60,597 nt of DNA from a bacterium (GCA_044869275.1 JBIOXB010000177.1:1-60597); one strand, 5' to 3'; positions 5,752 to 51,838 are shown, counted from the stretch's first letter. The notes: generated by a model not told the origin, from the sequence alone. Numbers and translations are program-made.

Positions 5752-5815
5752 CCAAAATTCAAATCACAAAATCCAAGAGTGGTTTTGAGTCTCGAGTTTT
5801 GGATTTTGGATTTCG
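5752..5815. repeat. Heptamer-array inverted repeat (CCAAAAT / ATTTTGG type)
   Basis: ccaaaat tcaaatc acaaaat ccaagag ... ttttgag tctcgag ttttgga ttttgga tttcg. Confidence 0.65.
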
Positions 5816-5859
5816 TTGCTCAAAAAGCACAGATTTCACTTCTAATGAAGTTTAGCGGA

Positions 5860-5887
5860 TTTTCATCCCGAAGGGCCGGGATGAAAA
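5860..5887. repeat. Perfect 11-bp stem hairpin (REP-like)
   Basis: ttttcatcccg-aagggc-cgggatgaaaa. Confidence 0.6.
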
Positions 5888-5927
5888 CCGAAGCTCGTTA
5901 CGGAGCAGCTTTAGACAAAAAAACTCT

Positions 5928-5989
5928 CCAACGGATCAAAAACGACCAACGGATTATTCTGAATCCGTTGGTCGCTTCCCATCCGTTGG
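5928..5989. repeat. Nested inverted repeat (CCAACGGAT x2 / ATCCGTTGG x2)
   Basis: ccaacggat..cgaccaacggatt-attctg-aatccgttggtcg..atccgttgg. Confidence 0.65.
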
Positions 5990-6067
5990 CGAGGAAGCTT
6001 TCAGATTTTATTCTGACTTTGAGTGCCTTATGGCATAAAACGTTTTCTGTTCTCTTGCCGCACCGCC

Positions 6068-8320
6068 TCACTTGCCCTGGGCCTCCACCACCGCAATCGC
6101 CGTCATGTTGATCACATCGATCTCGCTCATGCTGCCGATTTGCAGAACGTGAACCGGCTTTTTCATGCCCATGAGAATCGGGCCAATGGCTTCGGCATGG
6201 CCGAGGCGCTGCAGCAGCTTGTAGGCAACGTTGCCGCTGATCAGATCCGGAAAGACGAGCACATTGGCGCCGCCTTTGATCGCACAAAAGGGATAAAACT
6301 CGTCGATGATTTCAGGCGTCACCGCAGTGTCGGCTTGCATCTCGCCGTCGACGATGAAGTCCACCTCTTTGTGGCGCAAAATGGCCAGCGCCTCCAGCAC
6401 TTTCTGGGAAAGGGGATGTTTGACGCTGCCGAAGTTCGAAAACGACAACAACGCCACGCGCGGCTCGATATTGAACCGGCGGACTTCCTTCGCCGCCAGG
6501 ATCGCGATCTCCGCCAAATCTTCGGCGCTCGGATCGATATTCACCGTCGCATCGGCAATGAAGTACACGCCGTTTTTGAACACCATGGCGTACAAGCCTG
6601 CCACTTTCTTCACGCCTTCGCGCAACTTGACGATTTGCAGCGCCGGGCGCAGCGTGTCGGGGTAATGTTTGGTCAAGCCGGAGACCATGCCGTCGGCTTC
6701 ACCCAAATGCACCATCATGGGCCCGAAATAGTGGCGATGCCGCATCAGCTCTTGGGCGTCGCGCCGCGTGAGGCCATGGCGTTTGCGCAACTCATAAAAC
6801 GCGTTGACGTAGGCCGGCAGCTTCTGCGAGACCAGCGGATTGACGATCTCCACGCCGCCATGCAAATGAATGCGCATTTCCTCCACGCGGCTCAGAATCG
6901 CCTTTTCCTCGCCGAGCAGAATGGGATGGGCGAGCCCTTCGTCCAGAATGACTTCGCAGGCCTTGAGCACCGCCGGAAAATCGCCCTCGGGATAAACGAT
7001 GCGCTTGGGCGCGGCTTTGGCTTTGTTGATCATCACCCGCATGAATTTCCGCGAAACCCCCAAACGCCCTTCCAGCTCTTCGCGATATTTGTCGAGATCG
7101 ATCTGCTTTTGCGCCACGCCGCTGTTCATCGCCGCTTGCGCCACTGCCGGCGCGACCCACAGCAGCACACGAGGATCGAACGGCTTGGGGATAATGTAGT
7201 CGCGGCCGAATTTGAGATTTTGCAGACGGTAGGCTTTGATCACGGTGTAGGGCACGGGCTCCTTGGCGAGTTCAGCCAAAGCGCGCGTGGCGGCATGTTT
7301 CATGTCTTCGTTGATCGTGGTCGCACGCACGTCCAACGCGCCGCGAAAGATGAACGGAAAACCGAGCACGTTGTTGACTTGATTGGGATAGTCCGAACGG
7401 CCCGTCGCCATGATCAAATCCGAGCGCACGGCGGTCGCTTCCTCGTAGGTAATCTCAGGATCGGGATTCGCCATGGCGAAGATGACCGGGTCCTTGGCCA
7501 TGGACTTCACCATCTCCTTCGTCACCATATTTGCGCCGGAGAGCCCGACGAAAACATCTGCGCCTGCCATCGCTTCAGCGAGCGTGCGCGCCTTGGTTTC
7601 AGCTGCGAGCTTGGCTTTGTAAGGATTCATGTTGTCGGTGCGGCCGGCATAGACGACGCCTTTGGTGTCACACAAAATCAGATTCCGTCGTGACACGCCC
7701 AGGCTCAGATAATAGTTGGCGCACGCAATGCCCGAGGCCCCCGCACCATTGAACACCACCTTGACCTTGCTGAGGTCCTTGCCCACCAATTCCAGCGCAT
7801 TGAGCAGCGCCGCGCCCGAGATGATGGCGGTGCCGTGTTGATCGTCGTGAAACACCGGGATCTTCATGGTCTTTTTCAGTGTTTCCTCGATTTGAAAACA
7901 TTCCGGCGCCTTAATGTCTTCGAGATTGATGCCTCCGAACGTCGGCTCCATCAGCTGCACGGCTTTGATGATCTCCGCCGGATCGTGCGAATTCAGCTCG
8001 AGATCGAAAACATCGACATCGGCGAAGCGTTTGAAGAGCACGCCCTTGCCTTCCATGACGGGCTTGCCCGCTTCCGCGCCAATATCACCGAGACCGAGCA
8101 CCGCGGTGCCGTTGGATACCACCGCCACGAGATTGCCGCGCGCGGTATATTCCCAGACCTTTTCGGTATGGTCATGAATTTCGCGGCAGGGCTCGGCGAC
8201 GCCGGGGGTGTAGGCCATCGCCAAGTCCGTTTGCGTCGCGCAAGGTTTGGTCGACACCACCTCGATTTTGCCCTTGCGGCCTTCGCTATGGTAACGCAGG
8301 GCTTCGGCTTTGGATATCAT
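6068..8320 (-). CDS. maeB: NADP-dependent malic enzyme with phosphotransacetylase-like domain
   Basis: [38 protein letters not shown] and C-terminal DGEMQAD; 750 aa. Confidence 0.96.
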
Positions 8321-8355: not shown

Positions 8356-8474
8356 CAGAATGTGCGAAAACTTGGGAATGCCGCACCCTGAGCTTGTCGA
8401 AGGGTGCTAAGTTCAAAAAATCCGGCTTCGACAAGCTCAACCGGCGTTAAGACCAAGCGTTTTCACACAATCTG
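8356..8474. repeat. REP/REPIN-like palindromic doublet nested in an outer imperfect inverted repeat
   Basis: tgagcttgtcgaag (8389-8402) and cttcgacaagctca (8426-8439) form a perfect 14-bp IR; outer arms cagaatgtgcgaaaacttgg / ccaagcgttttcacacaatctg. Confidence 0.65.
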
Positions 8475-8483
8475 AGTCTTCTT

Positions 8484-8546
8484 TGGATTGATGGAGTATT
8501 GGAGAAATGGATTATTGGGGTCGGGATGGTAGGTTCCAACAATTCA
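8484..8546. repeat. Partial octamer-array element (TGGAxxxx)
   Basis: tggattga tggagtat tggagaaa tggattat; only a short opposite arm (ttccaacaattca) reaching the ald-like stop codon. Confidence 0.55.
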
Positions 8547-9692
8547 TTGTTCCGCCGCTCCGTTATGTATGGGCGCAACCAGTTCCTCCATCGGCACGGC
8601 GGGCCAGCCCAGCAGTTTCCCCATCTCGGCATGGGTGCATTGCCCGTTATAGAGATAGGCCCCGTGCCGGAGCAGCGCGTTGGTTGCAAACGCCGATTCC
8701 CCACGTTCGGCCACGAGCCGGAGAAAAGGCAAAATCACGTTGTTGAGCGCGTGCGAAGCCGTGCGCGCTACCAGCGCCGGAATGTTCGGCACGGCATAGT
8801 GAATCACGCCATGATGAATGAAAACCGGATCGGAGTGCGAAGTCGGCCGGCTGGTTTCGATGCAGCCGCCCTGGTCAATGGCAACGTCCAAGATCACACT
8901 GCCCTTGCGCATGCGCTTGACTTGCGTCTCGGTCACGATATGAGGAGATTGCCGGCCGTGAATCTGCACTGCCCCGACCAGAACATCGGTGTTTTCCATG
9001 TAACGATCGATACTATAAGGCGTGGCCATGACCGTATTGACTTTGTTGTGCAGTTGTTTTTCAAGCTGGCGCAGGCGCGAGAGATCACTATCCATCACGG
9101 TGACGTCAGCGCCGGCGCCGGCAAATGCCTCTGCCGCCGTGCTGCCGACGATGCCTGCCCCGATAATTACCACATGCGCCGCGGGGATTCCGGCGGCGCC
9201 GCCGAGAGCAATGCCGCGACCGCCTTTCGGCGTCGCCAAAAACTGGCCCGCGATTTGAGGCAAGAGCATGCCCACGATTTCGCTCATGGCCGTGAGCACG
9301 GGCAGATTGCCCGCGTCATCCTCCATCAGGTTATAGCCGATCGCGGTGCATTTTGCTTCGCACAAGGCGGCCATGATCTTTGGATTGACGACGCCGAAAT
9401 TGATAAAACTGAAAAGCATTTTGCCCGCCGTGAGCCATTCCACTTCCTGCCAGGTGGGCGGCATGACGGTCACGATGAGCTGGGCATTCCCAAAGACCTC
9501 ACTTGCGCCAAATCCCAGCGTGGCCCCAGCCTCGTCGTAAGCTTCGTTGGTGAAGCCACAGACCAGGCCCGCACCCATCTGCACGATGACCTTGTGCCCG
9601 GCCTTCACCAGCGTGTTGATGCCAGCAGGGGTCAAGGCGACGCGATGCTCGTCGCGCCAGCTTTCCTTGGGAACACCGATGATCATCGTCAT
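8544..9692 (-). CDS. ald: Alanine dehydrogenase family protein (divergent; catalytic motifs altered)
   Basis: GVPKE..EHRVALTP, GAGIVG, DVAIDQGGCIETS and HYAVPNIP are present, but KVKEP reads TVMPP and YLHLA reads FINFG. Confidence 0.75.
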   Translation of the reverse strand: MTMIIGVPKESWRDEHRVALTPAGINTLVKAGHKVIVQMGAGLVCGFTNEAYDEAGATLGFGASEVFGNAQLIVTVMPPTWQEVEWLTAGKMLFSFINFGVVNPKIMAALCEAKCTAIGYNLMEDDAGNLPVLTAMSEIVGMLLPQIAGQFLATPKGGRGIALGGAAGIPAAHVVIIGAGIVGSTAAEAFAGAGADVTVMDSDLSRLRQLEKQLHNKVNTVMATPYSIDRYMENTDVLVGAVQIHGRQSPHIVTETQVKRMRKGSVILDVAIDQGGCIETSRPTSHSDPVFIHHGVIHYAVPNIPALVARTASHALNNVILPFLRLVAERGESAFATNALLRHGAYLYNGQCTHAEMGKLLGWPAVPMEELVAPIHNGAAEQ

Positions 9693-12509: not shown

Positions 12510-12528
12510 TGTTCTCTCCTCGCTTTTG

Positions 12529-12650
12529 AATCGAGGATCGAGGATTGAAGATCGGAGATAGAAGCTCGGCTCTCAGTGGAATCTTCTATCCTCGACCTTC
12601 CATCTTCGATCTTCTATCTTCGATCTTCCACTCTCAATCTACGCTTCTCA
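12529..12650. repeat. Heptamer-array inverted repeat (GATCGAG / TTCGATC type)
   Basis: gatcgag gattgaa gatcgga gatagaa ... ttctatc ctcgacc ttccatc ttcgatc ttctatc ttcgatc. Confidence 0.8.
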
Positions 12651-18030: not shown

Positions 18031-18143
18031 AGAGCAGAAAGCAAGCAGCAAAAGGCAAAGAGCAAAAAGAAAAGAGCGAAGAGCAGAGCTTCTTGCTTTT
18101 TGCTCTTTTCTTTTTGCTTTTTTCTTTTTGTTTTTGCCTTCTA
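18031..18143. repeat. Heptamer-array inverted repeat (AGAGCAA / TTGCTCT type)
   Basis: agagcag aaagcaa gcagcaa aaggcaa agagcaa aaagaaa agagcga agagcag | cttcttg ctttttg ctctttt ctttttg...; abuts the regulator stop codon. Confidence 0.8.
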
Positions 18144-21768: not shown

Positions 21769-22045
21769 TTACCACGGGACAGCTTTGCGATCGCGCAAAA
21801 ACTGGCCGGTCAAACCTTGCGGCGCTGCCGTCGCGAGCCAGACAATCGTCTCCGCGCCTTTTTCTACGGAACTCGGCGCCAGGCGGCCACCCATGTCGGT
21901 TCTCACCCAGCCGGGACAGACTGAATTCACGGCAATGCCCTGGCTTTGCAATGCCGCTGCAAGCTGCCGCGTGACCGCATTCAAGGCGGTTTTGGAAATG
22001 CTGTAGGCCGCGATTGGCGCCGGTGATTAAAGCCGTTTTAGGCAT
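21769..22045 (-). pseudogene. Short-chain dehydrogenase remnant (internal deletion plus frameshift)
   Basis: MPKTALITGANRG is joined out of frame to AYSISKTALNAVT...VNSVCPGWVRTDMGG (YxxxK motif). Confidence 0.8.
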
Positions 22046-22134
22046 GCTTTGCATACCTCTAGTTTGAGATGACGCTCTTAGTCCAGCTGCAGGATGGCGT
22101 GGTTAATTGCTGCAGGTTGAGCCCCGCCGTCATG

Positions 22135-25646: not shown

Positions 25647-25717
25647 AAACCGCGAATGGACGCGAATTCACGCGAATTGAGAAAATATTTGCGTGCATTC
25701 GCGTGAATTGGCGGTTT
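25647..25717. repeat. Decamer-array inverted repeat (CGCGAAT type)
   Basis: aaac cgcgaatgga cgcgaattca cgcgaattga gaaaata tttgcgtgca ttcgcgtgaa ttggcggttt. Confidence 0.8.
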
Positions 25718-30473: not shown

Positions 30474-30615
30474 TGGAGTGTTGGATAAATGGATTGATGG
30501 ATTGACGGATAGATGGATTATTGGATTACTGGATTCTTGGATTGGGTATGAATTGTAGAGCTCCAGTGATCCATCAATCCGATAATCCATTCAATCCATC
30601 AATCCATCTATCCCA
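30474..30615. repeat. Octamer-array inverted repeat (TGGATTxx / xxAATCCA)
   Basis: Nine degenerate TGGATT-type units, then about six TCCATCAA-type units in the opposite orientation. Confidence 0.85.
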
Positions 30616-31170: not shown

Positions 31171-31352
31171 TGGATTGAAGGATTACTGGATTACTGGATT
31201 ACTGGATTACTGGATTACTGGATTACTGGATTACTGGATTACTGGATTGATGGATTGATGGATTGATGGAAGATCCACGCATGCAACAATCCAACAATCC
31301 AACAATCCAACAATCCGACAATCCGACAATCCAACAATCCAACAATCCAAAT
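31171..31352. repeat. Octamer-array inverted repeat with perfect (TGGATTAC)7
   Basis: About 12 TGGATT(AC/GA) units at 31171-31266 and 8 (A/G)ACAATCC units at 31285-31348. Confidence 0.92.
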
Positions 31353-31354: not shown

Positions 31355-32443
31355 TCAATACACACCAACCACAACCGACTCTTGCAGCCGTGAGAACAGC
31401 CGCAAGTTCGAGACGCCATCCCAGGGATACTTTTCGATGGGCTCGGCGCGCTCGCCTTCATCGCGTTCAAGAAAGCGCGGCATGAAAAACTCCTTGGTCA
31501 ATGTCGTCAACATCACGCGGCCGGTCTGGCCATATGCGACCGGCTCTTCGGGGTTGTCCGGATTGACCAACTCGAACACAGCGCGGGGCAAGGGCGGATA
31601 ATACGTAATCGCGTAATTGTCTTCCAGATCGAATGGCTTGTGACACGCCAGGCCCATCAGAGTATTGCCATAAGTTGGCACAAAGTCAACACCCGGCACG
31701 AGTTCTTCGCGCGCGAAGCGATGGAATTGCGCGTTCATTTCGGTGCCACCGCAAAAAATGCCGGTGATCCCGTATTTGACCAGATTGATTTTTTCGCACA
31801 AAGCTTCAAGCAGTTTGGGGGTGGTGAAAATACATTTGATGTTTTCGTGGGCCCGCAGGATGGTCAAACCTTGATCGATCACGTGCGTCTTGTAAGCTTC
31901 CAATTCCTGGATTTTGCCGCGCTTGATCAGCTTATTCACCCACCGCGGATCGAGATCGACGTGAAACGCAATGCCGCCACGATGCTGTGCAAGATGCTCA
32001 ATCGCTAGACGCAATCGGCGCGGACCGGTAGGGCCAAGCATGAGCCAATCGCTATTTAAAGGAAAAGTATCCGGCGCTAGCGTTGCGCTGAACATTTCGT
32101 AATCGATGCGAAAATCATCAATGCCGATGCGGGTTTTGGGCACGCCGGTGGTGCCGCCGGTTTCAAAAACATTAACGGGCTTATTCGCCAGTGCCTTCGG
32201 CACCCAGCGCCGCACCGGTCCGCCGCGTAACCAACCATCATCGAAATGACCCAGCAATTTGAGATCAGCATACCCCGAGATTTCCTTGCGCGGATCGAAA
32301 CTTAGTTTGCGCGCAAATTCCAGCCAAAATGGGCAGCCGGTGTCGGGATTGAAATGCCATTGCACCATTTCGCGCACGTGGGCGTCGAGCTTTCTGCGCG
32401 CCGCGGTGATTTTGCTTGATAGGGAGGTTTTGGAGATGTCCAT
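31355..32443 (-). CDS. EhpF-like adenylate-forming enzyme (PaaK/LuxE-related)
   Basis: WHF..TG.PFW, ETGGTTG.PK, PTGP, DLDPRWV, TTP, GGTE, YGNT, PRFLERD and terminal GVY match my recollection of Pantoea EhpF. Confidence 0.8.
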   Translation of the reverse strand: MDISKTSLSSKITAARRKLDAHVREMVQWHFNPDTGCPFWLEFARKLSFDPRKEISGYADLKLLGHFDDGWLRGGPVRRWVPKALANKPVNVFETGGTTGVPKTRIGIDDFRIDYEMFSATLAPDTFPLNSDWLMLGPTGPRRLRLAIEHLAQHRGGIAFHVDLDPRWVNKLIKRGKIQELEAYKTHVIDQGLTILRAHENIKCIFTTPKLLEALCEKINLVKYGITGIFCGGTEMNAQFHRFAREELVPGVDFVPTYGNTLMGLACHKPFDLEDNYAITYYPPLPRAVFELVNPDNPEEPVAYGQTGRVMLTTLTKEFFMPRFLERDEGERAEPIEKYPWDGVSNLRLFSRLQESVVVGVY

Positions 32444-32451
32444 GTTCGAGC

Positions 32452-32828
32452 CAGTGATCAGTGAGCAGTGAATAGTGATCAGTAAGTTACTGATCCAAAT
32501 GATTCATCGTAAAATACTCAGCCATTTCCTCTCTTACTATACTTGGCGTCAGTTAGTTTGCTGATGAAAAGTCTTCCATATCTTCGCTTCGCCCAGGCTT
32601 CCGATATCTGCGCGCCAATACACCTTGAACACCGACGAATTTGATCAGTCAGCGAATAGGCTTCTTCTCGTGGAAATCTTTTCGATAACTGAAAAATATC
32701 CTTCGAAAGCAACTTGGCATTCCGATAAACTAATAAATCGCGAAAACTCTTCGCATGAGATAAATGACTCATATTTCCCCCATAATAGTCAATTGACTGA
32801 TCACTGACAACTAATCACTAATTACTGA
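32452..32828. mobile_element. Heptamer-array inverted-repeat element enclosing a four-helix-bundle gene
   Basis: Left arm cagtgat cagtgag cagtgaa tagtgat cagtaag; right arm tgactga tcactga caactaa tcactaa ttactga; mobility is inferred. Confidence 0.55.
32487..32772 (-). pseudogene. Four-helix-bundle protein (23S rRNA IVP family), internally deleted
   Basis: SFRDLLVY, FPREEAYSLTDQIRR and EAWAKRRY..FISKLTDA, then stops at 84 aa; a probable C-terminal tail IVREEMAEYFTMNHLDQ* survives in another frame. Confidence 0.78.
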
Positions 32829-34497: not shown

Positions 34498-34527
34498 AGA
34501 TAATTGGGTGACTCATAAAAAACCTTA

Positions 34528-34576
34528 GAACGCAGATGGCGCAGATTCACGCAGATATCTGCGACAATCTGCGTTC
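34528..34576. repeat. 9-10-mer-array inverted repeat (CGCAGAT type)
   Basis: gaacgcagat ggcgcagat tcacgcagat atctgcgaca atctgcgttc. Confidence 0.75.
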
Positions 34577-34602
34577 AAAATCTCTTTCTGATAGCTGGTG
34601 CA

Positions 34603-40261: not shown

Positions 40262-43200
40262 TCACACTCCCGCTTTGAAATTCTGTCTCACCTCGGCCTG
40301 GGTGAAGGCATGATTGTAAACCGCGATCAAATAAAATTCGCCGCGCCAGGGATAATTTTGCGTGAGCTCATTCGCCAGCGCCAGCTCGTAATTCTCCCAA
40401 TTGGCAAAGCTGCCGCCGATGGTGGGGCGCGCGTTTGGCGCGGGATCCGTGCCGTTGAGATAAAATCTGATCCGGCCCGAGGCATTGCGCGTATAAACCA
40501 CGTGGCACAACTCCTGCGCCAAATCGAGGTCTTGATAAGCCGGCTGCCCGTTGTTCAAACGCACTCCGTCTTCGTCCGTCTCCGTGGTGCGCAAGCGTAT
40601 TTGGAAACGGTTCTCGACGAGCTGGCCGAGCGTGAAATTGCGCCGGCCGCCGTCCACCGAAAGCGTAACGATTCTGTCCGGGCTTTTGACGCCGGGGATG
40701 CTGGCGGGCTTGATCCAGGCTTCGAGGGTGATTTCGTTCGTCGTTTTCAACGCGTTGAGCAAGCGCAGCGCCGGGCCATTGGATTTGATGATCGTAGGCG
40801 CGACGATGCGCAAACCTCCGTCGAGCCATTGCAGAGGCTGGGTGTTATTGCCGATTTGTTGCATGCGCAAATCAATGGGTGCACCCACGCCGGACACGTC
40901 GTGAACCACAATGCCACTGCCTTCATCAAATAGATACAACACCTGCAAGCCTTCGAGCACACGCGGCGAGGGATGCACCTTGAGATTGATCTCATCGAAC
41001 ACCGGTGCGGCCTGTGCATAATCTTTTGCCGTTAGGCGCAAAACATAGTCGCCCGGCTGCGAGAACCTTGCCGTGGTGAATAGCGCCGCCGCATCGCCGA
41101 AGGTGACAGTTCCAGGCCCGCTCACTTTCGACCATGCCGAGGAGACGACTCCCGGAGGATCGGGCAAGCCATCGTCGGTGATGATGCCGTCCAGCTCTGC
41201 GAACGCGGGCAAAGTAAGCTCAAAATCAGCGCCGGCTTCGACTTCAGGCGCATGGTTGGCGGTTAGCGTAACCAGGGCTTCACTTGCAAGCTGGAAGCTG
41301 GCACCGCGAATTTCCACCGTCAGTTTCAACACGTACACACCGCTTTTCGAGAAACTTGCGGTGGTACCGAGCAAGCCTTCATCTGCAAAACTCACTTCTC
41401 CCGGGCCGCTCACTTTTGTCCAGCGCCTCACGATGACGCCATCGGGGTCGGCAAGCCCTAAATCGATTACCTCGCCGGTGAGTGCGGCGGTATGCGGTAA
41501 TGTGATGATTGGCTCCGTGCTGGCGCGAATCACTGGCGCTTGATTCACAAAGACCGTTACCGCGGCCGTGGCGGCCAGATGGCCGTTATGCACCGACAAT
41601 TGCAGCACATACTTGCCATATGCGGTAAAGCTGACGGGCGTCTGCAAATCGTGCGGATCCGCGAATATCGCCTGTCCCGGCCCCTCGAGCTGCGACCAAT
41701 GCAACTCGAGATTCTTTGGCAGAGATTCATCCCCCAAACCGTCATGCGAGATGAGGGCATGCAGTTGCGTGATCGCGGAGGGCATGGCCAGCCATTGCGT
41801 CTGACCGGCAACGATAGTCGGTGCTTTGTTGACAGTGAGCTTCAGCTCATCGCTGGCGGAAAGCTGTTCGTCGGAGGCGGTGAGACGCAAGATGTAAACT
41901 CCGCTGTCGCTGCATGCCGCCGTTGTGCTCAAAGCATCGGAGTTATCAAATGCCACCGTGGTCACGCCGCTCACTTGCGTCCACTTCACCGCGATTTGTT
42001 CGGGCTGCAAACGATCATCGATCAACAAGCCCTGCAGCGTCGCAGCGCTGGGCAGATTGATGGTTTGATCGTTGCCCGCAAATACGAACGGCGGCAAATT
42101 GGTGTCCGCGCCGAATTCAAAATTTTGCAACACTTCTGCCGCAGACAACGCACGATTATAAATCGCGGCCAAATGAAACTCGCCCGACCACGCGCGATCG
42201 TGCAGGCCCTCGTCGTCCCATTCGTTGCCCAGTGCCAGGCGCGCGTTGCGATCCCAGTTCGAAAAATTCCCCGACAACAGGCGCTGGCCGGCCTCTGCGC
42301 CGTCAATGTAAATGCGCAGCACGCCCGCGGCTTCGCGTGTGAGCACAACGTGCGTGAGCTGGCTCACTTTCACCTCGCCGGCAGCCAGTGCTTTGTTGCT
42401 CGCGTTGAAATTCGTGGTATCCGTACGCACCGCCGCATAGTAGCGCTTGCCACGTTGTCCGAGGGTAAAGTTGCGGCTGCCCGGTCCCGAGGAGAGCGTC
42501 ACCATACGCGCCAAGCCGCTTTGTTCTGCCTGTGCCGGCTTGATCCATGCTTCGACGGTCAACGCATTCGTTTGCTGTATCGCGTTGAACAAGCGCGCAG
42601 GCGGCTGGCCGATTTGCATGCGCGCTGGTTCTTGCAAAGCCAAACCGCCTTCAACCCAGCTCGTACCCTGCATGGGCAGCGCGAGCGGCAACGCCGGCTC
42701 GACGGCGGCAACGTCACGCACCCAAGCGCCGCTGCCTTCTTTGAACACGTACAGAGTTTGCAGACCTTGCATCACGCGGCCGGCGACCGCAATCACGATA
42801 TCATCACTGGCGTTGAAAAAGCCGTTGCTCACCGTGAGGCGCAGCAAATACGGCCCGCTTTTCGTAAACGTTGCCGCAGTGGACAAGGCCTCATCGTTGG
42901 CAAAATTCACTTGACCTGGCCCGCTCTCCATCGACCATTTGTAAGTGAGTTGACCGCCCTGTTCGTCGCCCAGCCCGGAATCCAACAACGCGCCAACCAG
43001 TTGCGCGGTCTCGCGCAAGCGGATTTCTTTGTCCTCACCCGCAAAAACCACCGGCTCGCTGTTCACCACGACGGTGAGATCGTCGCTCACCGCAAACAGA
43101 CCATCGTTAATGGTAAGGCGCAAAACGTAAACCCCGCGGCCACCAAAACTCGCCCTGGTGTTCAGGCTATTCTCGTTTTCAAACGTCACATTGCCCGGCC

Positions 43201-46200
43201 CGCTGATTGTGCTCCACAAGATCAATAGGTTTTCCAACGGCTGCTGGCTATTGATGAGCGTGCCCTGCAGCTCGAGACTCTCGTTGATGGGTATGTTCTG
43301 CGGATTGTCCGGCCCGGCATCAACTTCGGGCAATAACGGCGCGCCGGCATCGACAAAATCCTCTTCACCGCTACCCAGCAACAGGGTGTCTGCCGTGATG
43401 CCGAAGTACAAGCTCATGTATTGAATGATGGCTTCGGTATGCGGCTGCAGCTCGGGATGATAGGTCTTGATGGTCTCGCGAATGGTGCGCGAGAACTCCG
43501 CAAAATTGGTGAGCTTGTTGGCCACGAAGGGTTCGAGCAACTTAATCAGCTCATAGTTGCTGTCGAGGTCGAGCAGCTTCAGCGTCTGTTCCAGCGGCGA
43601 GGCGGTGGGGTCGGGAAAATCGCGCAAGATGCGGCTCACGAAGGTGACGCGGTGCATCACGCGCCAGCACGGCGGCTTCTTGCCGCTTTGCCGCGCTTCG
43701 CGCAAGGCTGCGGCATTGGGATCGTCGCTTTGCTCGATCCAAATCGGGTCCACGACTTTGCTGAAAAACGTATCGAAATTTTCAGGCTTGGGCTCGAGGT
43801 AAAACGTCATGAAGCGATACGCATTGACTTTGCCCGGCCATTTTTTCGGCTTGGGATTGTTGGGATCAGTGTGGTCCATCACGATCTCGCCTTCGGGCGT
43901 ACGGAAATAAATGTTGCGCTCCACTCCGCTGAGCTCGGCGTTCACACCAAAGGTGGTTTCCGAGACTTCACTCTTGGTCACGGTGAGATTGATGTGCCCG
44001 CCGAACATGGCCTGCACTTCGAGCTTGGCGGCAACGCCGAAAACCGTGAAGGCCGCCGTGAGATGGCCACCCGCCTGGCCTTTGAAGGCATAGGAGCCGC
44101 CCATGGACTCTTGCAGCACGTCGAACGTCTCTTGCGTCTCGGCAAACAAGCCGCCGTCGGAAGTCCACACATACGTGTTGACCAAATTGCGCTTTTCGAT
44201 TTTCGGCAGGTTGTTGAGCATCCTGCCTTCGGCCAAATCCTTGCTGGAAAAATGCACCGCCTCTTGCCGCCGGCCTTTTGCGCCCGCGTCCCATTGCTCG
44301 TAAAACGCGCGCAACGTTTCTTCTTCGCGCGTGATGCGGTTCTTCAAGCCGTACGCTTCGAGGGGTTTGAAGTAGCTGCTATCCGGACTATAAGTAAGCG
44401 CGTTGGGGTAATCGATGTCGGTCTCGAAACCGACTTTGCCGTCGAGCGTGCCCTGCTTGGTGTAGTGCGGATTGAGGGGAAACGAGATGATGTTCCAATC
44501 TTTGGGAATGTCGGGATTGGGCCGCATTTGATACGATACCAGCGCATCGTTGTGCGCCAGGCGCAGCGCGAACACGTCTGCGGTTTCGGATTGCACCAAG
44601 GCAAAGCCGGCGTTGTCCGGGAGGTAACGGCGCCCCACTTTGGGATAGGGATACCTCACACTGTTGAGGTTTTCGACGATGCCGCGCAGCTCGAGCTTGC
44701 TGGTTTTCGTCGTGGTGCGGCCGCGGCCGATGCTGGCGTCTTGCAGCCAGCCCAGGCTGTGCTCGAACGTGGCTTTGATGCCGCCGCTCACCTCCGCTTC
44801 CACCACCTCGGTGAGCACGATGGGCGCCAGCGGCACCACCGGCGTGCTCGTGAACACCTGCGCGCCGCCGCCCAATTCCGCCGACAATTCGACGTTCATA
44901 TCGAAGCCGCGATCGCGCTCCGCGGAGTACGTGAACGTGGTCTTGTCCGCGTCCGAGATTTCGATGGCAGTCGCGCCATCGTAATCCGTGAATTCCTTCA
45001 GCACATAGTCGAAGAAAGTGAGATTCTCGCTCGGCGCCGGTGGCGGGCCTTCGATAAAACCGATGAGCTCGGGATCGAACTGCACCTGGCCGACCCACTC
45101 CGTCACCAGATTGCCGACTTTGAAGCCGGTGATCAAATGCCATTGTCCGTTTCTGACGAAACCATAGCAGCGTTTGAGCACGCCCAGGAGATTGCCTTCG
45201 ACGTCGTACTGCAAATCGCCGTACTCCTGCACCGCCACGCGGCTCTGTAAAATACCGCTGAACGGCGTGCGGATGCCGGCGAGCGCGCTGCGCACCTGCG
45301 GCGTGTCTTCCGCAATCGGCGCGGTGGAGAACACGTACAGCGTGTCAACCAGGCTGAGATCATTGCCGCGGAAGGAGTGGTCGGTCAGCTCGCCGGGTTT
45401 TTCCGCATCGAAGGTGTAATACGCAATCAGCTCTTCTTTTTCGCCCAGCAGGCGCGTGAACAGGTTGTCTTGAATTTGCTCCTGCGTGCGCGGCATGCGC
45501 CAGACGCGCACTTCTTCCATTTCGCCCTGGAAAAAACTTTGCACGGTATTATTGTCAAGCGCACCCAGAGCGAATTGATCCTTGTCCACCGGAAAGCCGG
45601 CGGCGTTCTTGAACTCCGTGGCCACGGTCTCACCGTTGCGATACAGCGTCAAACGGGAGGCATTGAATTCGGGATTCTTGATCCATTCGATATTGCCTTT
45701 GAAGCGCGCATGGTTGCTGCTTTTGGCGTCGAAGGCGATATTGCCCTCGTTCTCTTCAAAGCGCCACCACGAGACCAGGCCCTTTTCATTGCCGATGAGA
45801 TCGACGCCGAGGTTCTCCGGCTCACGCGCGACGTTCCAGATGCGCACCTCGCTGATCACGCCTTTGCAGCGCGCTTCGATGAGATTGGGCATGAACGCGC
45901 GGCCGATCTCCAGCGCATCGCCGCTGCTGCCAATTTCCGGCCCCACATACTTCGCCGAACCGCAGGCCGCCATCGCCCCCGCATAATTCTTTTTGTAGAA
46001 CTTAATATCGTGCCACTGCTCCACTTTCGTGCCGGTGAGATTGCCGCTGCTGTCGCGCTGCTCGGTGGTCACCACTTGGTGCTTGCGCGTGATGGCGATA
46101 CGGTTGAAATAGCCGCGGCGCAGCGCACCGGCTTCGGACTGGAACGCGTGATTGCCGTTCTCCACATCTTCGAAAGCGAAAACCAGACGATCATCCTCTT

Positions 46201-49200
46201 CCGCGTAAAGCGCATAGGGCGAATTCTTCTCGGTGCCGTCGTCGATTTTGCCTTTGCTGAGAATCCCGAACGGGTGGCGATGCTCCGCGCGCAAAAAGAC
46301 TTCGAGGGTTAAATCGCCGACAATATCGAGCGTGCTGTCGCTGCCGCAATCGAGATACGAGGCGCCGTCGAGTTTTACGGCGTAGGACTGATTGTACGCC
46401 GCCGCGAGATGGGTCCAACTGCCGGCGGCGAACACCTCTTTCGCTTGTACGAACAACTCGCCCACACCGGCGTAAGCGGCGTAACCCGGCAGCGGCGAAA
46501 CCGCAAGCTGCGGATTGCCGTGGCGTACACCGTCATTGCGGTATCGCGAAAAGTCGCGCGCGAAGCCTGCTTCAAAATGCCAATAGCCCACGAGATCGGT
46601 TTCATTGCCGCCCAGTTGGCGGTTCATATCGCCGCGAATTTCGGTCTCGCTGCGCCCGCGTTTCCAGATGCGCACGTCGTCGATCTCGCCTTTAAACAGC
46701 CGCTCCTGGCTCCCGCCGCGGCTGCCGATGGCCCAGTCCGCCTGCACTTGCAGCGCGCCAGTGGTTTCGCTTTGCAATGCGACTTCGACACCGTTGCGAA
46801 ACAGTCGCCATGCGCTGCCGTCATAAACTCCGGCGAGATGAATCCAATTGAGGCCGGTCTGATCCGCCGCCGGCATTTCAAATGAGGCCAGGTGATTGCT
46901 GCCGTTCCAAGAACCGACTTGATAAAAGTATTTGTTGTTGTTGCGGAGGAGACGCAGAAAAACTTCACGGTCGGGATTATTGGCATAGCCGTGCGCTACG
47001 ATATTCTGAAACGGTTTATTGGCATCGACTTCTGGCTTAATCCACACCTCGATGGTAATGGCGCCGGAAAAATTTAACGCCTCATGATTGGGAATGCTGA
47101 CGTAATCATCCACGCCATCAAAACTCAGCGCCGACCTTAGCTCCTTGCGCTCCAACCCCAGAGCGTAGCGCGAATCCGGAGAACGATGTTGTAGGATCTG
47201 GCCCTTGTTTTCGATCACTTGCGGCCGTACCCAGGCTTCCAGCGTGATATCGCCGCCGGCAGCGAACTTTTTCATATCCGCCGCCGAAGCGAGATGCGCA
47301 TAGCTTTTCGCACCGTCGAACGCCAGCGTATGGCCGGGCGCGGCGGCGGTCCACAAACACGAAATAGTGTTACCGCTCGCGAGCTCTTGATCGATTTGAA
47401 CTTCGCCCGTGGTGTTGAGCGCACTCGCCAAAATGAGAAGCGAGCCGTTGCTTAAGTCGCTTGGGATTTTCGTGGCACTCGCATGTTGCGCATAATCATA
47501 CTCGATAAAAAAGACGGGCACGGCCTCACCCGGCGCGCTGGTGGCCGCGCTTTGCACGAGAATCGTCGTCGCGCCTTTGGGCGTGCTTTCCACCACGGTC
47601 ATGCGCAGCTCGCCCGCGCGCAGCGTCATTCCCACTTCCAACGCGCGGTGGCAGCCGGCCGCGAGGTTCACGCCTTCGATGCGGCCTGCATTCACCACGA
47701 TGGTTCCGGTGCCGATATAGGCGCGCTCGTTTGCCAGGCCGTTCAACACCTTGGCAAAACGCTCGGGATGCCGGGGCACTTGCCGCCAGGTTTCGACGAT
47801 CTGATTGCCGTCTTTATCCTCCGGCCCGGTGATCGTCACCGTGCAAGCCGCATCATCCAGATCAACACCGACCTTGATCTTGAGCTTGTCCATCTCCGGC
47901 TCGGTGGAACGCGCCACGCAGAGCACGCATTCGCTCCCGCGCGCATCCACCAGACGATATTGCGGCCGTTGCGTTAGGGTGTTGTAATACGTCACGAAGA
48001 ATTGATCATCCGTGCCGCGAAAATAAAGCGCGAGCTTGCCTGTGGCACTGTCGAACAACAGCGGGGCTTCATTCGTCCAAGCAAACTCCAGCAGGCCGCC
48101 GGTGAGGCTCAAGCCGACGGGGTCAGTGAATACTAACGACATGGGCTTGGCCACGCCCTGGCTGAGCGACACCCGCAGCTGAGCCAATTCGGTCTGCTGG
48201 CTGGTCAGCAACGATTCTTTTGCACTCCGCTGTCGCGATTTGTCTTGCCGGCTGAGGTCGAGATTGGTGCGTTCGTCACGCAAGGCTTGCGTGGAATTCG
48301 CCACGGCATTCTCGGCGTCAACGCGCGCTTGCGCCGCAGCGCTCAATTGTTGATCGAAGCTGGTGTTGGTGCGAATATCCAAACTTGAAATGATGTCGTT
48401 CCAATCCTCACCGACATAGCTGGTACCCGAAGTGAAGGTCTTGGACTTGCCGCCGCGATTGGCGTGCTCATACACCGTGACTTGCAGCGCTTCGGATATG
48501 GTGATGGAAGAGATAATGTCGTTAAAGCCGTGCCCGCGTAAATCCGTATATCCCACAAAGCCACCGCCGAATTGACCGCCATTGCGGCCGTATGAAATGA
48601 CGCGACCGCGAAAACTGCTGTGCTCGTACAGCCATACCCGGCCGCTGGCCAGCTCGTTCTGCAACGTTTGCTCGCGGCTGCGCGCTTGTGCAAGCGTGGC
48701 GCGATCATCCTGCAGTTTTTGAATCTTGGTGTTGATACGTTCGCGCTCGGTGAAGCGAATGTCCGTGACACGCCGGTTGTCGGTATTGCCGATGGCCTCG
48801 TTGACGATATCGACCACGCCATTGAGCACCTCGATTTCATCCGTGAGATTGACAATATCGTTGCGCAGGCTCAACACCTCTTGCTCGCGCACGCTGGCCT
48901 CGTTGAGCTGCTCGTCGATCGTCTTGCCGCCCAGCGTCGGCTGCGGAATCAGCGGCAGCTCCAAGTGGTCCGGAGTCTGCGCCAGGCGGCCCGTGCTCGC
49001 CACGCCAAAATCGAGCGCAGCGATTTCTTTATTCACGCCATTTGCGCTTTGGGTGGCCACGGCCAGCATCACACGCGCGCTGTGTTTGAGCGGCTTGGCC
49101 GCCCTTTCATATCCCGTTGCGGTTTTTTCTTGGTGATAATACAACAGCGCCGCCGGACCGGAAGCCAGCTCGCGGCCCGCAATGCGAAAGCTGCTGCGCT

Positions 49201-50764
49201 GCAAACCGGAATTCTCGCCGATCGGTGCCTCGGAAGTGACCCACTCACCGCCATGAATCGTACCGTTTATCGCGGCCTCTGTTTGATCGTATGCGACCTC
49301 GCCCGAAGCCTCGTCAAAACGCCAATAGCCTGCAAGCCCGGGCTCGAGACCGGTGAGGCGCTGGCGCATCTCCGCTTGAATCTCGGCCTGCAAACGCGGG
49401 CGATGCCACAAGCGAATCTCGTCCAGCATGCCTTGCCATGAATTGCCGTTCGGGTCGCCGAAATAGCGCGTGCTGCTTGCCGCCGGATTCTTGCCGGCAA
49501 GAAGCTCGCGCACAACTTGTTTCGCACCGCCGATGTAAACCTCGACCTGCGAGGTGCGATGCCTTTCATTGCCGTTCACATACACGCGATAGGAGTCACC
49601 ATTGAACGTCACCGCGAGATGATTCCACGCGTTGAGCGTGAGAATGTGGCCGGTGGTGAATTCGTACCATTTCTCCCCGTCGCCAAAGCCCGCACGCACG
49701 GCTTTGCCTTGATAAGTCCACAGCGAGGGCGGCGCAGCGTGATCCCTGCCGTTACTGCCGTTGCCGGTGAGCAAAGCTTGTGTGCCGACATCGCTGGTGG
49801 GATAAATCCAAGCTTCTTGCGCAAACGTGCCGCCGGCTTTCACGCCGCTGCCCAGATCAACATGCCAGCTGCCATTTGCAAAACGCAAAGCCGATTCGGC
49901 ATGGCCGAAGAAAATTGGCTCTTGCGAACCGCGGGTATTGAACAACCCATCAGCCGCGCGTTCGAGGTTATGAGAATCCATCGCGCCGGTTTTGCCGTTA
50001 TGGCTGAAGATTTGCCAGCGCTGCACGCCCACCACTTGCGTGGGCAGCAACAATGCCGTGAAACGGCCCTCAGTCAAATTGCCAATGAAGCGTAATTCCT
50101 GCGTCGGCTCGAAGAAGGGTTTGTCTTCCATGTCCTTCGCGCCGAGACTATCTTTGCGGCTTTCCGGCCGGGACTTGCTGCGACTGCGCTGATAGCGCAC
50201 TTCCATTTTGGTTTTCAATTCCGTGCCCGCGAGCACGAAGCGGTCAACAAGCAATGTCGAGTTGACGATGGGCACGGGATTGCCGCCGTCGTCTTTGACA
50301 GGATTGCCGTCGGCATCGAGCTTGAACACCATGTCAACATGATGCGCGTTAATCGCCTGCCGGAAGATGAACACGTGCCGGCCATCGGACAATGCTTGAA
50401 ACGGCGCATCCGCCGTGAGCCGCGCGGTGGTGGAGAGAAATAGATCTTTTTCTTCTTCGCGCACGCGCATGCCCGGCGCCACCGGCGTGCGGCTGCCTTT
50501 TTTGACGGGCGGCAGCATGGTCTGATCAGCCACGCCCACACCGACTTCCGCAATTTCGTTGGGAAAAAATAGTTCCTTGGGGTTGCCCAGCCAATAATTC
50601 ACATCGAGGGGGGATTTGATGCTGGTGTTTTCGAGATCCAAAACCGAGTAGAAAATGCGCCGCTCGCTATCGAGCGCAAACGCAATGACCGTGCCTTTGT
50701 GGCGCACGGTGGTAACGTGTTTGTAGATGCGGTTGCTGTAGGTCTTGATGAAAGTGCTGAGCAT
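40262..50764 (-). CDS. Giant 3500-aa multidomain protein (LamG-like jellyrolls, beta/gamma-crystallin, coiled coil, PKD-like repeats)
   Basis: ATG at 50764 after AAAGGAG; repeated TLEAW.KP / G.IDEVR.W / GYW.F.E LamG motifs; LYEH..F.G and WND.ISSL crystallin motifs; six V.AG.D..W....GPG repeats. Confidence 0.88.
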   Translation of the reverse strand: MLSTFIKTYSNRIYKHVTTVRHKGTVIAFALDSERRIFYSVLDLENTSIKSPLDVNYWLGNPKELFFPNEIAEVGVGVADQTMLPPVKKGSRTPVAPGMRVREEEKDLFLSTTARLTADAPFQALSDGRHVFIFRQAINAHHVDMVFKLDADGNPVKDDGGNPVPIVNSTLLVDRFVLAGTELKTKMEVRYQRSRSKSRPESRKDSLGAKDMEDKPFFEPTQELRFIGNLTEGRFTALLLPTQVVGVQRWQIFSHNGKTGAMDSHNLERAADGLFNTRGSQEPIFFGHAESALRFANGSWHVDLGSGVKAGGTFAQEAWIYPTSDVGTQALLTGNGSNGRDHAAPPSLWTYQGKAVRAGFGDGEKWYEFTTGHILTLNAWNHLAVTFNGDSYRVYVNGNERHRTSQVEVYIGGAKQVVRELLAGKNPAASSTRYFGDPNGNSWQGMLDEIRLWHRPRLQAEIQAEMRQRLTGLEPGLAGYWRFDEASGEVAYDQTEAAINGTIHGGEWVTSEAPIGENSGLQRSSFRIAGRELASGPAALLYYHQEKTATGYERAAKPLKHSARVMLAVATQSANGVNKEIAALDFGVASTGRLAQTPDHLELPLIPQPTLGGKTIDEQLNEASVREQEVLSLRNDIVNLTDEIEVLNGVVDIVNEAIGNTDNRRVTDIRFTERERINTKIQKLQDDRATLAQARSREQTLQNELASGRVWLYEHSSFRGRVISYGRNGGQFGGGFVGYTDLRGHGFNDIISSITISEALQVTVYEHANRGGKSKTFTSGTSYVGEDWNDIISSLDIRTNTSFDQQLSAAAQARVDAENAVANSTQALRDERTNLDLSRQDKSRQRSAKESLLTSQQTELAQLRVSLSQGVAKPMSLVFTDPVGLSLTGGLLEFAWTNEAPLLFDSATGKLALYFRGTDDQFFVTYYNTLTQRPQYRLVDARGSECVLCVARSTEPEMDKLKIKVGVDLDDAACTVTITGPEDKDGNQIVETWRQVPRHPERFAKVLNGLANERAYIGTGTIVVNAGRIEGVNLAAGCHRALEVGMTLRAGELRMTVVESTPKGATTILVQSAATSAPGEAVPVFFIEYDYAQHASATKIPSDLSNGSLLILASALNTTGEVQIDQELASGNTISCLWTAAAPGHTLAFDGAKSYAHLASAADMKKFAAGGDITLEAWVRPQVIENKGQILQHRSPDSRYALGLERKELRSALSFDGVDDYVSIPNHEALNFSGAITIEVWIKPEVDANKPFQNIVAHGYANNPDREVFLRLLRNNNKYFYQVGSWNGSNHLASFEMPAADQTGLNWIHLAGVYDGSAWRLFRNGVEVALQSETTGALQVQADWAIGSRGGSQERLFKGEIDDVRIWKRGRSETEIRGDMNRQLGGNETDLVGYWHFEAGFARDFSRYRNDGVRHGNPQLAVSPLPGYAAYAGVGELFVQAKEVFAAGSWTHLAAAYNQSYAVKLDGASYLDCGSDSTLDIVGDLTLEVFLRAEHRHPFGILSKGKIDDGTEKNSPYALYAEEDDRLVFAFEDVENGNHAFQSEAGALRRGYFNRIAITRKHQVVTTEQRDSSGNLTGTKVEQWHDIKFYKKNYAGAMAACGSAKYVGPEIGSSGDALEIGRAFMPNLIEARCKGVISEVRIWNVAREPENLGVDLIGNEKGLVSWWRFEENEGNIAFDAKSSNHARFKGNIEWIKNPEFNASRLTLYRNGETVATEFKNAAGFPVDKDQFALGALDNNTVQSFFQGEMEEVRVWRMPRTQEQIQDNLFTRLLGEKEELIAYYTFDAEKPGELTDHSFRGNDLSLVDTLYVFSTAPIAEDTPQVRSALAGIRTPFSGILQSRVAVQEYGDLQYDVEGNLLGVLKRCYGFVRNGQWHLITGFKVGNLVTEWVGQVQFDPELIGFIEGPPPAPSENLTFFDYVLKEFTDYDGATAIEISDADKTTFTYSAERDRGFDMNVELSAELGGGAQVFTSTPVVPLAPIVLTEVVEAEVSGGIKATFEHSLGWLQDASIGRGRTTTKTSKLELRGIVENLNSVRYPYPKVGRRYLPDNAGFALVQSETADVFALRLAHNDALVSYQMRPNPDIPKDWNIISFPLNPHYTKQGTLDGKVGFETDIDYPNALTYSPDSSYFKPLEAYGLKNRITREEETLRAFYEQWDAGAKGRRQEAVHFSSKDLAEGRMLNNLPKIEKRNLVNTYVWTSDGGLFAETQETFDVLQESMGGSYAFKGQAGGHLTAAFTVFGVAAKLEVQAMFGGHINLTVTKSEVSETTFGVNAELSGVERNIYFRTPEGEIVMDHTDPNNPKPKKWPGKVNAYRFMTFYLEPKPENFDTFFSKVVDPIWIEQSDDPNAAALREARQSGKKPPCWRVMHRVTFVSRILRDFPDPTASPLEQTLKLLDLDSNYELIKLLEPFVANKLTNFAEFSRTIRETIKTYHPELQPHTEAIIQYMSLYFGITADTLLLGSGEEDFVDAGAPLLPEVDAGPDNPQNIPINESLELQGTLINSQQPLENLLILWSTISGPGNVTFENENSLNTRASFGGRGVYVLRLTINDGLFAVSDDLTVVVNSEPVVFAGEDKEIRLRETAQLVGALLDSGLGDEQGGQLTYKWSMESGPGQVNFANDEALSTAATFTKSGPYLLRLTVSNGFFNASDDIVIAVAGRVMQGLQTLYVFKEGSGAWVRDVAAVEPALPLALPMQGTSWVEGGLALQEPARMQIGQPPARLFNAIQQTNALTVEAWIKPAQAEQSGLARMVTLSSGPGSRNFTLGQRGKRYYAAVRTDTTNFNASNKALAAGEVKVSQLTHVVLTREAAGVLRIYIDGAEAGQRLLSGNFSNWDRNARLALGNEWDDEGLHDRAWSGEFHLAAIYNRALSAAEVLQNFEFGADTNLPPFVFAGNDQTINLPSAATLQGLLIDDRLQPEQIAVKWTQVSGVTTVAFDNSDALSTTAACSDSGVYILRLTASDEQLSASDELKLTVNKAPTIVAGQTQWLAMPSAITQLHALISHDGLGDESLPKNLELHWSQLEGPGQAIFADPHDLQTPVSFTAYGKYVLQLSVHNGHLAATAAVTVFVNQAPVIRASTEPIITLPHTAALTGEVIDLGLADPDGVIVRRWTKVSGPGEVSFADEGLLGTTASFSKSGVYVLKLTVEIRGASFQLASEALVTLTANHAPEVEAGADFELTLPAFAELDGIITDDGLPDPPGVVSSAWSKVSGPGTVTFGDAAALFTTARFSQPGDYVLRLTAKDYAQAAPVFDEINLKVHPSPRVLEGLQVLYLFDEGSGIVVHDVSGVGAPIDLRMQQIGNNTQPLQWLDGGLRIVAPTIIKSNGPALRLLNALKTTNEITLEAWIKPASIPGVKSPDRIVTLSVDGGRRNFTLGQLVENRFQIRLRTTETDEDGVRLNNGQPAYQDLDLAQELCHVVYTRNASGRIRFYLNGTDPAPNARPTIGGSFANWENYELALANELTQNYPWRGEFYLIAVYNHAFTQAEVRQNFKAGV

Positions 50765-50784
50765 GGCGGCGGCTCCTTTGTTGT

Positions 50785-50892
50785 CATTGACAATTGACCA
50801 TTGGCAATCGGTGATTATCAATTCATCATTCACAATTGGCAATTCACCATTCTCAATTCACAATTGGCTATCAGCAATGGTGAATGGCGAAA
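50785..50892. repeat. Heptamer array (CAATTxx/CATTxxx) with a short opposite arm
   Basis: About 13 units cattgac aattgac cattggc ... aattcac aattggc, then aatggtg aatggcg; directly upstream of the giant gene RBS. Confidence 0.8.
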
Positions 50893-51237
50893 TTTCTTCA
50901 ACGCATAGCTGCATTGCAATCCAAAGCGATCGCTCTTTAATGTGACATTGATCAGTTTTTTTGAACACGGATAACATAGATTTGCGATGGTTTTTTGTTG
51001 CTGCCGGCCCTAGAATTGCTTTATGAATGCTTCAGCCTATGCGCGGCTTTAGCGTGGTTCAATTGGCGACCAAGTTAAAGTGCTTCTTGAAACGGTGGCA
51101 TCCTTCATTCATCTACGTCGAACTTGCAAATTAACTACTCAAGGCCGGCGGTCACTTCAGGAATATCAATTGTGCAACCCATCTAAAGTGATAGTTTAAG
51201 AATTTAGAAGAGATATTCAAGTGACGCTTTAAGCTCT

Positions 51238-51500
51238 TTATTTTGGAGCTGAAGCTGAGCATGATTCAGCAAAGTAGAGAATACGGCTTTCAGAATCGCC
51301 AATTTCACGCCTTATCGACAAACTCTTTTCCAAATACTCCATGACTTTCTCTAATACCCAAGCGCCTTGCTGAATTCCACCAAAATTGTCTACGCTCCCC
51401 CCCTTCGCACGCGCCAATTTCACGGCTTATCGACGAACTCCTTGCCCTGGTCTCTCGGCGAGAATCACTCTTGACTATTGCTCTAACGCCAAGAATATGC
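51238..51500 (-). pseudogene. Degraded tetratricopeptide-repeat gene remnant
   Basis: MEYLEKSLSIRREIGD, and SISREIGA in another frame; 23-nt direct repeat (1 mismatch) at 51297 and 51412. Confidence 0.6.
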
Positions 51501-51750
51501 GACCTCAAACCTTCGCTGTCAAGTCAATATTGGCCGGCAATTTGAAAAAATACGAAAATGTACATTTTCACGCATCGCGCCAGAGGCAACTTTGGACCTG
51601 TGACGGAGGTGATGTGGAGGTTGGAAACAGAGGTATTGCGTCAAGCTTGTATCCCCCCAACATGGGAAGCCGTAGTGCAACGAGATCAGCCTAATACTCT
51701 TTCAAATAGAAAAAACTGAAACCCTTGACAGTGTCAAAAAGCGCATTTGC

Positions 51751-51838
51751 ACACGGATGACGCGGATGAAACGGATTCTCACGGATTTTTAACCTTGCTT
51801 TATAGTGTCCATTCACTCAATCCGTGTCATCCGCGATC
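51751..51838. repeat. Nonamer-array inverted repeat (ACGGAT type)
   Basis: acacggatg acgcggatg aaacggatt ctcacggatt ... aatccgtgtc atccgcgatc. Confidence 0.75.

Follow-up and report, generated by a model that had tools for sequence, protein, structure and literature searches.

Inverted arrays of short tandem words in the gene junctions of a bacterial genome, and the small four-helix-bundle and GxxExxY genes that share them

The stretch of DNA analysed here (the window: the whole 60,597 nucleotides (nt) of JBIOXB010000177.1:1-60597 from the bacterial assembly GCA_044869275.1) carries between its genes hairpins made of tandem 7-10-nt words followed by an inverted copy of the array. These hairpins are likely to be the gene-less members of about twenty families, each of which shares its word with a small gene for a four-helix-bundle or a GxxExxY protein. 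Comparison within the genome and with its relatives revealed, at the level of sequence, arms shared by gene-bearing and gene-less copies, a fixed polarity of the words, a coupling of word and protein, cassettes at unrelated loci, turnover at gene junctions and decay of cassettes by deletion. We hold it moderately probable that these are selfish cassettes, the proteins of which would bind DNA at their own words and would spread both the cassette and its gene-less copies.

Array families, cassettes and partner proteins

A scan of the genome of the window (G000; 6.67 Mb in 255 contigs, best matched by sequencing runs labelled soil metagenome) recovered 515 closed inverted array pairs, against 6 in the shuffled control. 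Regarding the single periods, the genome and a codon-block shuffle held 466 and 2 arrays of period 7, 179 and 2 of period 8, 64 and 14 of period 9, and 23 and 2 of period 10. Elements occupy 407 of 3971 co-oriented junctions, about one in ten. Among gaps of at least 50 nt, co-oriented gaps are enriched in elements (416 of 474 elements vs. 2825 of 3570 gaps), whereas gaps between divergent genes are depleted (24 of 474 vs. 424 of 3570). Only 17 of the 515 elements lie inside called genes, and most of those 17 are false positives. Neighbouring junctions tend to be filled together (odds ratio 2.4). Clustering by 5-mers gave 22 clusters of five or more members. The units, each of which had been described as different, are thus genome-wide families, and two sites of the window (30474 and 31171) share one. 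Polarity is fixed for most words, with three cluster pairs reversed.

Two classes of families were distinguished. Those linked to four-helix-bundle genes have words of 7-8 nt, start at the upstream stop codon or shortly after it, and have only the word in common between copies. Those linked to GxxExxY genes have words of 8-10 nt (about 18 nt where the protein has two domains), lie in mid-spacer and occur as near-identical whole copies; copies of this type, as well as those of the family found at 5747, are near-identical at dispersed sites, flanks included. The preliminary description had the hairpins often abut a stop codon or ribosome-binding site. For the first class this is so (median distance from the stop -0.5 to 13.5 nt), for the second it is not (median 44 and 145 nt). 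As judged by eye, arm spacing tracks the build of the protein, with 8-10 nt for single-domain and about 17-19 nt for double-domain GxxExxY proteins. In nine stop-proximal clusters picked by the author, lone arms of the 5' type were nearer to a stop codon in 52 of 55 cases and those of the 3' type nearer to a start codon in 26 of 32. A role of the 5' arm as supplier of stop codons in all frames found no support for 7-nt words (375 stops vs. 348 reverse stops); words of 8-10 nt gave a modest excess.

One copy in the window encloses a gene, as had been noticed from the sequence:

32452..32488: downstream (sense 3') 7-nt arm, ending beside the start codon of the next gene
32518..32772, minus strand: four-helix-bundle gene of the type found in 23S intervening sequences (IVS), with profile matches to TIGR02436 / PF05635
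32791..32827: upstream (sense 5') 7-nt arm, containing the stop codon of the preceding gene

The gene has lost 167 nt by an internal deletion near 32542 relative to G001, a genome of the same genus in which it is intact at the same junction. When contigs were compared for strain variation over 31400-36500, a source-like sequencing run covered this range without differences, and the contig of a related strain from another study had the same deleted form; the deletion is therefore not an assembly error, and the window's own cassette decays by deletion. Several cassettes are internally deleted.

A listing of what lies between the arms recovered the expected four-helix-bundle and GxxExxY genes as cargo. 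Counted over this genome and its relatives, for loci with enough flank and at a stem score of at least 15, arms enclose 53 of 72 four-helix-bundle and 31 of 35 GxxExxY loci, compared with 10 of 646 ordinary small genes. In this genome arms were seen by eye at 9 of 10 TIGR02436 matches and at most matches of TIGR04256 (GxxExxY). A further 337 arrays are lone, and 56 of them have a distant partner. Inspected by eye, with reading frames viewed without a library scan, what these 56 enclose was either a four-helix-bundle gene or ordinary host genes situated between two elements; no third family of cargo was noticed.

The partner proteins were assigned to PF05635 (four-helix bundle) and PF13366 (GxxExxY). 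A model of the GxxExxY protein (pLDDT 94) matches PD-(D/E)XK nucleases, among them an alkaline exonuclease, Cas4, lambda exonuclease and Hjc, with modest E-values, and residues D69, E79 and K81 are conserved in at least 90% of 65 sequences; no sequence relative with a solved structure was found. In double-domain proteins the second domain is, by eye, devoid of these residues. The four-helix-bundle proteins, for which we know of no catalytic role, match structures 2gsc and 2rld, of five chains each, and one cassette protein passes the cut-off of the bAvd family. Median ratios of nonsynonymous to synonymous substitution (dN/dS) of 0.07 and 0.09 (37 and 6 unsaturated pairs) point to purifying selection on the cassette proteins. 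Partner genes were found on 39 plasmids, and a four-helix-bundle gene on a Nostoc plasmid has 8-nt arms that begin at the upstream stop, the same cassette design.

The arm word follows the protein clade and not the host. On a tree of 71 proteins (built by a quick method on 133 columns, with word labels assigned by hand) the arm word changes 33 times (the minimum being 30 and the shuffled value 59), whereas 60 changes are needed for the host genome (shuffled 56), which is unclustered. In a label-free test of different loci, which omits pairs with common flanks, arms are shared by 20 of 21 and 6 of 6 pairs of proteins with at least 70% identity, compared with 1% and 5% of pairs below 30% identity. 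Three clades mostly have a locus or paralogous neighbours in common, which amounts to plain descent; in other clades a flank is in common in 0 of 10, 0 of 10 and 1 of 15 pairs, which places the cassettes at unrelated loci.

Since linkage alone could produce this coupling, the number of gene-less copies was compared with the presence of the partner gene in 41 genomes. The family of the 31171 element is abundant (at least 23 matches) in 8 of the 41 genomes and its partner gene is present in 8; 7 genomes from four genera belong to both sets (Fisher p 3e-6, overstated by kinship and by a post-hoc threshold). The 5919 family (the type found at 5924..5993) is abundant in 4 genomes, each with a close gene or a fragment, and the partner of the 12529 family occurs in 5 genomes, all within the top six by first-look candidates. 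By their counts these two pairs are weaker than the 31171 pair.

These families also bear on a neutral origin in situ, through slippage of the polymerase and switches of template, with the small genes merely carrying the arms along. Unit number varies and loops are unique in the 7- and 8-nt families, as slippage would have it, and the text of Rehm et al. relays the idea that heptamers favour slippage (PMC4692102). The fixed polarity of most words, the limited set of families, the near-identical dispersed copies in other families and an abundance that follows the partner gene all speak against such an origin, which we regard as very improbable.

Junction turnover, pairing and the weighing of explanations

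Orthologous junctions were compared with G001 over 831 kb, about a tenth of that genome, with a detector that misses some long-period elements. Among 286 junctions, an element was present in both genomes at 40, only in G000 at 16, only in G001 at 11 and in neither at 219; at 11 of the 40 junctions filled in both, the word differs. Families were thus gained, lost and swapped, as the proposed alignment of relatives had been meant to reveal. By eye, the 12529 junction holds the same family in three relatives, a 6-nt family in three and none in five. At two junctions with the same flanking genes one genome has a four-helix-bundle cassette and the other a GxxExxY cassette. Turnover is nevertheless slow, because 40 of 56 elements keep a G001 counterpart, and this pattern of gain, loss and swap suggests that junctions are preferred sites which are slowly refilled. 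A 6-nt word class of the same design was also seen at loci L007, L008, L011, L049 and L106 of relatives, in two cases around a four-helix-bundle gene.

The hairpins had been taken for empty or collapsed forms of an architecture-defined insertion element. "Empty" agrees with the arms shared by gene-bearing and gene-less copies, with cassettes at unrelated loci, with the junctions that differ between relatives and with the decay of the window's cassette by deletion. "Collapsed" does not, as the loops are unlike cassette interiors. What defines the element is a family-specific word coupled to a partner protein, and not architecture alone.

Slow turnover is what would be expected if the elements were host regulatory devices, i.e., mRNA stabilisers or translation modulators, and their proteins domesticated regulators of operon output. 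The placement at stop and start codons, the joint filling of neighbouring junctions and the purifying selection are in line with this explanation, as is MacGregor's proposal, in the text available, of translational control by a heptamer (PMC4679880). Words are swapped at the same junction, however, and the partner genes are patchy and often broken; close GxxExxY relatives are labelled as other phyla (about 75% identical ones Chloroflexota, 66% identical ones Planctomycetota and Blastocatellia), and elements also occur in an rRNA spacer and a cas locus. A regulatory role is improbable on this evidence.

Regarding the choice between DNA and RNA, mismatches in the sense-strand stems comprise 574 G-U and 583 A-C pairs overall, i.e., no bias, while controls lean weakly to G-U (rRNA 29/16, p 0.07; non-periodic spacers 432/374, p 0.04). 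The preliminary suggestion of mRNA processing structures is hence unsupported as a general rule, with one 8-nt family as the exception. Arms of gene-less copies pair with the arms of other members about as well as with their own, and worse with their own in three families, which argues that the word is conserved rather than the stem. No RNase III gene was found in the assembly, which is 94% complete; the gene is present in 39 of the 41 genomes, element-rich ones included, and the missing gene is therefore treated as an assembly gap and not as a loss.

In an RNA-level system, arms would fold in the transcript, RNase III would cut the stem, the ring protein would bind single-stranded words, and the element would spread via RNA or complementary DNA and a host reverse transcriptase. 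The Coxiella IVS, the stem of which has heptamer repeats and is excised by RNase III in the published account (PMC4990558), is a precedent. The match of a cassette protein to the bAvd family, the co-orientation of all 10 four-helix-bundle genes that have a called neighbour, the depletion between divergent genes, the sorting of lone arms to stop or start codons by type, the G-U excess of the 8-nt family and three reverse transcriptases in the genome fit as well. The overall balance of G-U and A-C, the small advantage of own over foreign arms, the better folding of several window sites on the antisense strand and the failure to detect arrays inside the 16S or 23S genes of this genome leave such a system rather unlikely. 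As a separate observation, a 115-amino-acid Avd-like gene (by eye) lies upstream of a reverse transcriptase on contig C184 (4194-6051), a possible diversity-generating retroelement.

The selfish cassettes that we favour would work as follows. The arrays would be inward-facing binding sites, and each family's protein likely binds its own word on DNA. The GxxExxY protein, by its predicted PD-(D/E)XK fold with D69, E79 and K81, may nick or cut at the arrays, host repair completing the insertion, and the four-helix-bundle protein, a ring-forming Avd relative, would recruit host enzymes and lay arms right behind stop codons. Either protein likely spreads the cassette and gene-less copies into gene junctions. 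The overall logic would, by analogy, be that of REPIN-RAYT systems without the transposase.

A number of results weigh against these cassettes. Their binding, cutting and movement are inferred, and arms that move with their gene are also expected from plain linkage. The abundance threshold used for the 31171 family was chosen after the counts were known, and kin genomes are not independent; one genome (G007) has this family in abundance without the gene, and among the 7 overlapping genomes two partner matches have an internal stop and one is partial. Four further genomes with a gene at least 67% identical hold 0-3 copies of the 5919 family. For the 12529 family, the five gene-bearing genomes have 13, 20, 0, 3 and 1 scored matches, and a genome without the gene (G036) has 9. 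The 68-copy 5747 family has no partner gene that we could find in this genome. Copies of the four-helix-bundle type are alike in word only and not over the whole sequence. No target-site duplication above chance was found in 105 GxxExxY-type copies compared with their ends set by motif and with no close empty allele at hand, and loops were rejected as cassette remnants, as 8 of 185 gene-less loops match interiors (mostly arm repeats) vs. 2 of 185 when shuffled. The persistence of 40 of 56 elements in G001 points the same way, as does the 70-copy 8-nt family (147 G-U vs. 96 A-C), and in gene-bearing cassettes own arms pair better than those of clade-mates (23.9 vs. 18.5).

Elements of the window and placements elsewhere

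Periodic runs with an inverted partner were confirmed at all 12 listed gaps, each between minus-strand genes of ordinary operons (genes were called with a hexamer model made for this analysis, so that start codons are approximate). Folded on the sense strand and compared with dinucleotide shuffles, 8 of the 12 are hairpins (z -2.9 to -9.9); the other 4 are weak (5747, -1.9; 8484, -2.3; 16434, -2.2; 50785, -1.1). A 13th element, missing from the initial list of sites, lies at 5924-5993 (period about 18, z -8.8). In addition to the cassette given above, the elements are:

5747..5814: gene-less 7-nt array pair of the 68-copy family with near-identical whole copies (10 loci at at least 85% over at least 60 nt)
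5924..5993: gene-less element, each arm with its motif in two copies at a distance of about 18 nt (15 loci, best 90-97%); arms of this type also flank double-domain GxxExxY genes
8484..8553: degenerate 8-nt array pair; the stop codon of the alanine dehydrogenase gene and the sense 5' arm overlap
12528..12633: gene-less 7-nt array pair flanked by a small gene and the oxidoreductase beta/gamma gene; the family has arms in common with the four-helix-bundle cassette on contig C98
16434..16486: short, weak 7-nt array pair with no genome match at E 1e-6
18031..18137: gene-less 7-nt array pair at a distance of 10 nt behind a stop codon; the rRNA spacer has similar arrays
25647..25717: gene-less 10-nt array pair in mid-spacer, arms in common with the GxxExxY cassette on C113; missing from the corresponding G001 junction
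30474..30613: gene-less array pair with 8-nt words, from the 70-copy family to which four-helix-bundle genes on C165 and C174 are linked; also in G001
31171..31350: gene-less 8-nt array pair of the same family as 30474; the junction holds this family in G001 and a different one in G016
34525..34590: gene-less 9/10-nt array pair with a GxxExxY-type word; G001 carries a different, 7-nt arm here
50785..50900: degenerate 7-nt arrays just upstream of the start of a 3,500-amino-acid gene; weak hairpin
51751..51835: gene-less array pair with 9-nt words; its 28-copy family has arms in common with GxxExxY cassettes on C235

Non-periodic palindromic repeats adjoin elements at 8385-8480 and 5868-5885, and the 8441-8480 part was found at other loci too. 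Three genes of the window may be mentioned. The 3,500-amino-acid protein (40262-50764) is 81% identical in G001 and has partial family matches only, a CatA-like O-acetyltransferase gene (27069-27716, under curated cut-offs) has no match in the syntenic G001 region, and a short-chain-dehydrogenase-like gene (21769-22130, by eye) is internally deleted relative to G001.

Elsewhere in the genome, two 7-nt array pairs resembling that at 18031 lie in a 16S-23S spacer, directly after tRNA-Ile and tRNA-Ala (C223, 109563-109848). A locus with cas6, reverse transcriptase, cas1 and cas2 genes (L181; C154, 33000-43300) has elements of several families at nearly every junction, one of them with a truncated four-helix-bundle gene. 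On C203 (44-1010) a four-helix-bundle cassette of about 480 nt directly follows the seventh CRISPR repeat and precedes a partial one, as though in the position of a last spacer. Loop-less copies of the 46-copy cluster 36 (e.g., C1:9266) join their arms in reverse order to the gene-bearing cassette on C208, which by eye resembles an end-to-end junction.

Comparison with known systems

Miniature inverted-repeat transposable elements and their insertion sequences typically occur as gene-less copies with inverted ends next to a small number of copies with a gene, and the present families are alike in this respect. They differ in that the cassettes have no DDE, HUH, recombinase or known transposase gene and in that target duplication was not found in the GxxExxY-type copies compared. 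Integron attC sites have a conserved core sequence at both outer ends, whereas the commonest outer trinucleotide here occurs in just 48 of 515 elements. The distinction drawn earlier from CRISPRs and from sequence-conserved repetitive extragenic palindromic (REP) sequences stands, since the arms are degenerate tandem arrays of 7-10-nt words, set head to tail with an inverted partner instead of unique spacers, and the window has no Rfam match.

The 23S IVS of Coxiella burnetii is described as carrying an S23p gene (PF05635) in its stem, with heptamer repeats in the 5' part, decay of the gene and excision by RNase III, the function of the S23p protein being given as not known (PMC4990558). IVS that bear an open reading frame (ORF) and the cassette at 32452-32827 thus both have a PF05635 four-helix-bundle gene between complementary ends, and the gene decays in both. 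The present elements occur between mRNA genes and in the rRNA spacer, not within the 23S gene, and comprise hundreds of gene-less copies, about twenty words and a second, unrelated family of nuclease fold with the same design.

REPIN-RAYT systems consist, in the text available, of extragenic inverted pairs of about 100 nt with a variable spacer, present in hundreds per genome and tied to a low-copy gene that carries the repeats (10.1101/2021.07.10.451892). The 515 pairs described here are likewise extragenic and inverted, about 100 nt long with a variable spacer, and have partner genes with the same repeats. Compared with that account, their arms are degenerate tandem 7-10-nt words and not palindromic REPs, their partners are PF05635 and PF13366 proteins and not an HUH tyrosine transposase, and, whereas RAYT stays at one locus and is inherited vertically, these partners change locus, have relatives in other phyla and occur on plasmids. 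An involvement of RAYTs found no support, as arrays are missing within 500 nt of 5 of the 6 Y1 transposase loci.

Rehm et al. describe heptamer repeats as over-represented in bacteria and seldom studied (PMC4692102). Inverted heptamer pairs in Xanthomonas (PMC4692102) and start-proximal heptamers in Beggiatoaceae (PMC4679880) resemble, together with those of Nostoc, the present arrays in lying between genes of one orientation, frequently paired with an inverted copy, and in having one strand close to stops and the other close to starts. They were explained by quadruplexes or translational control, and the available text of these papers links no partner gene; "four helix" does not occur in the main text of PMC4679880, with supplements outside the search. 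Our literature search, which had most subscription journals and supplements outside its reach, found no paper that links such repeats to these genes.

As a tentative generalisation, which we hold somewhat less probable than not, there may be a widespread class of mobile elements without a transposase, in which two unrelated small proteins, the four-helix bundle and the GxxExxY nuclease, each read a family-specific tandem word and write or copy inverted arrays of it into junctions, the four-helix class doing so behind stop codons. Both would maintain gene-less populations, with rRNA IVS and many bacterial heptamers as their products. Such a class would give the long-unexplained 7-base repeats of bacteria a testable origin. 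The matched word-protein pairs of about ten clades make binding, cutting and mobility testable with swap controls. Should the proteins act as proposed, they would provide small sequence-specific tools for work on DNA, and repeats would have a new way to colonise operons. By the features tested the elements belong to neither of the two nearest systems; their proposed way of working resembles that of REPIN-RAYT, their anatomy that of an ORF-bearing IVS.

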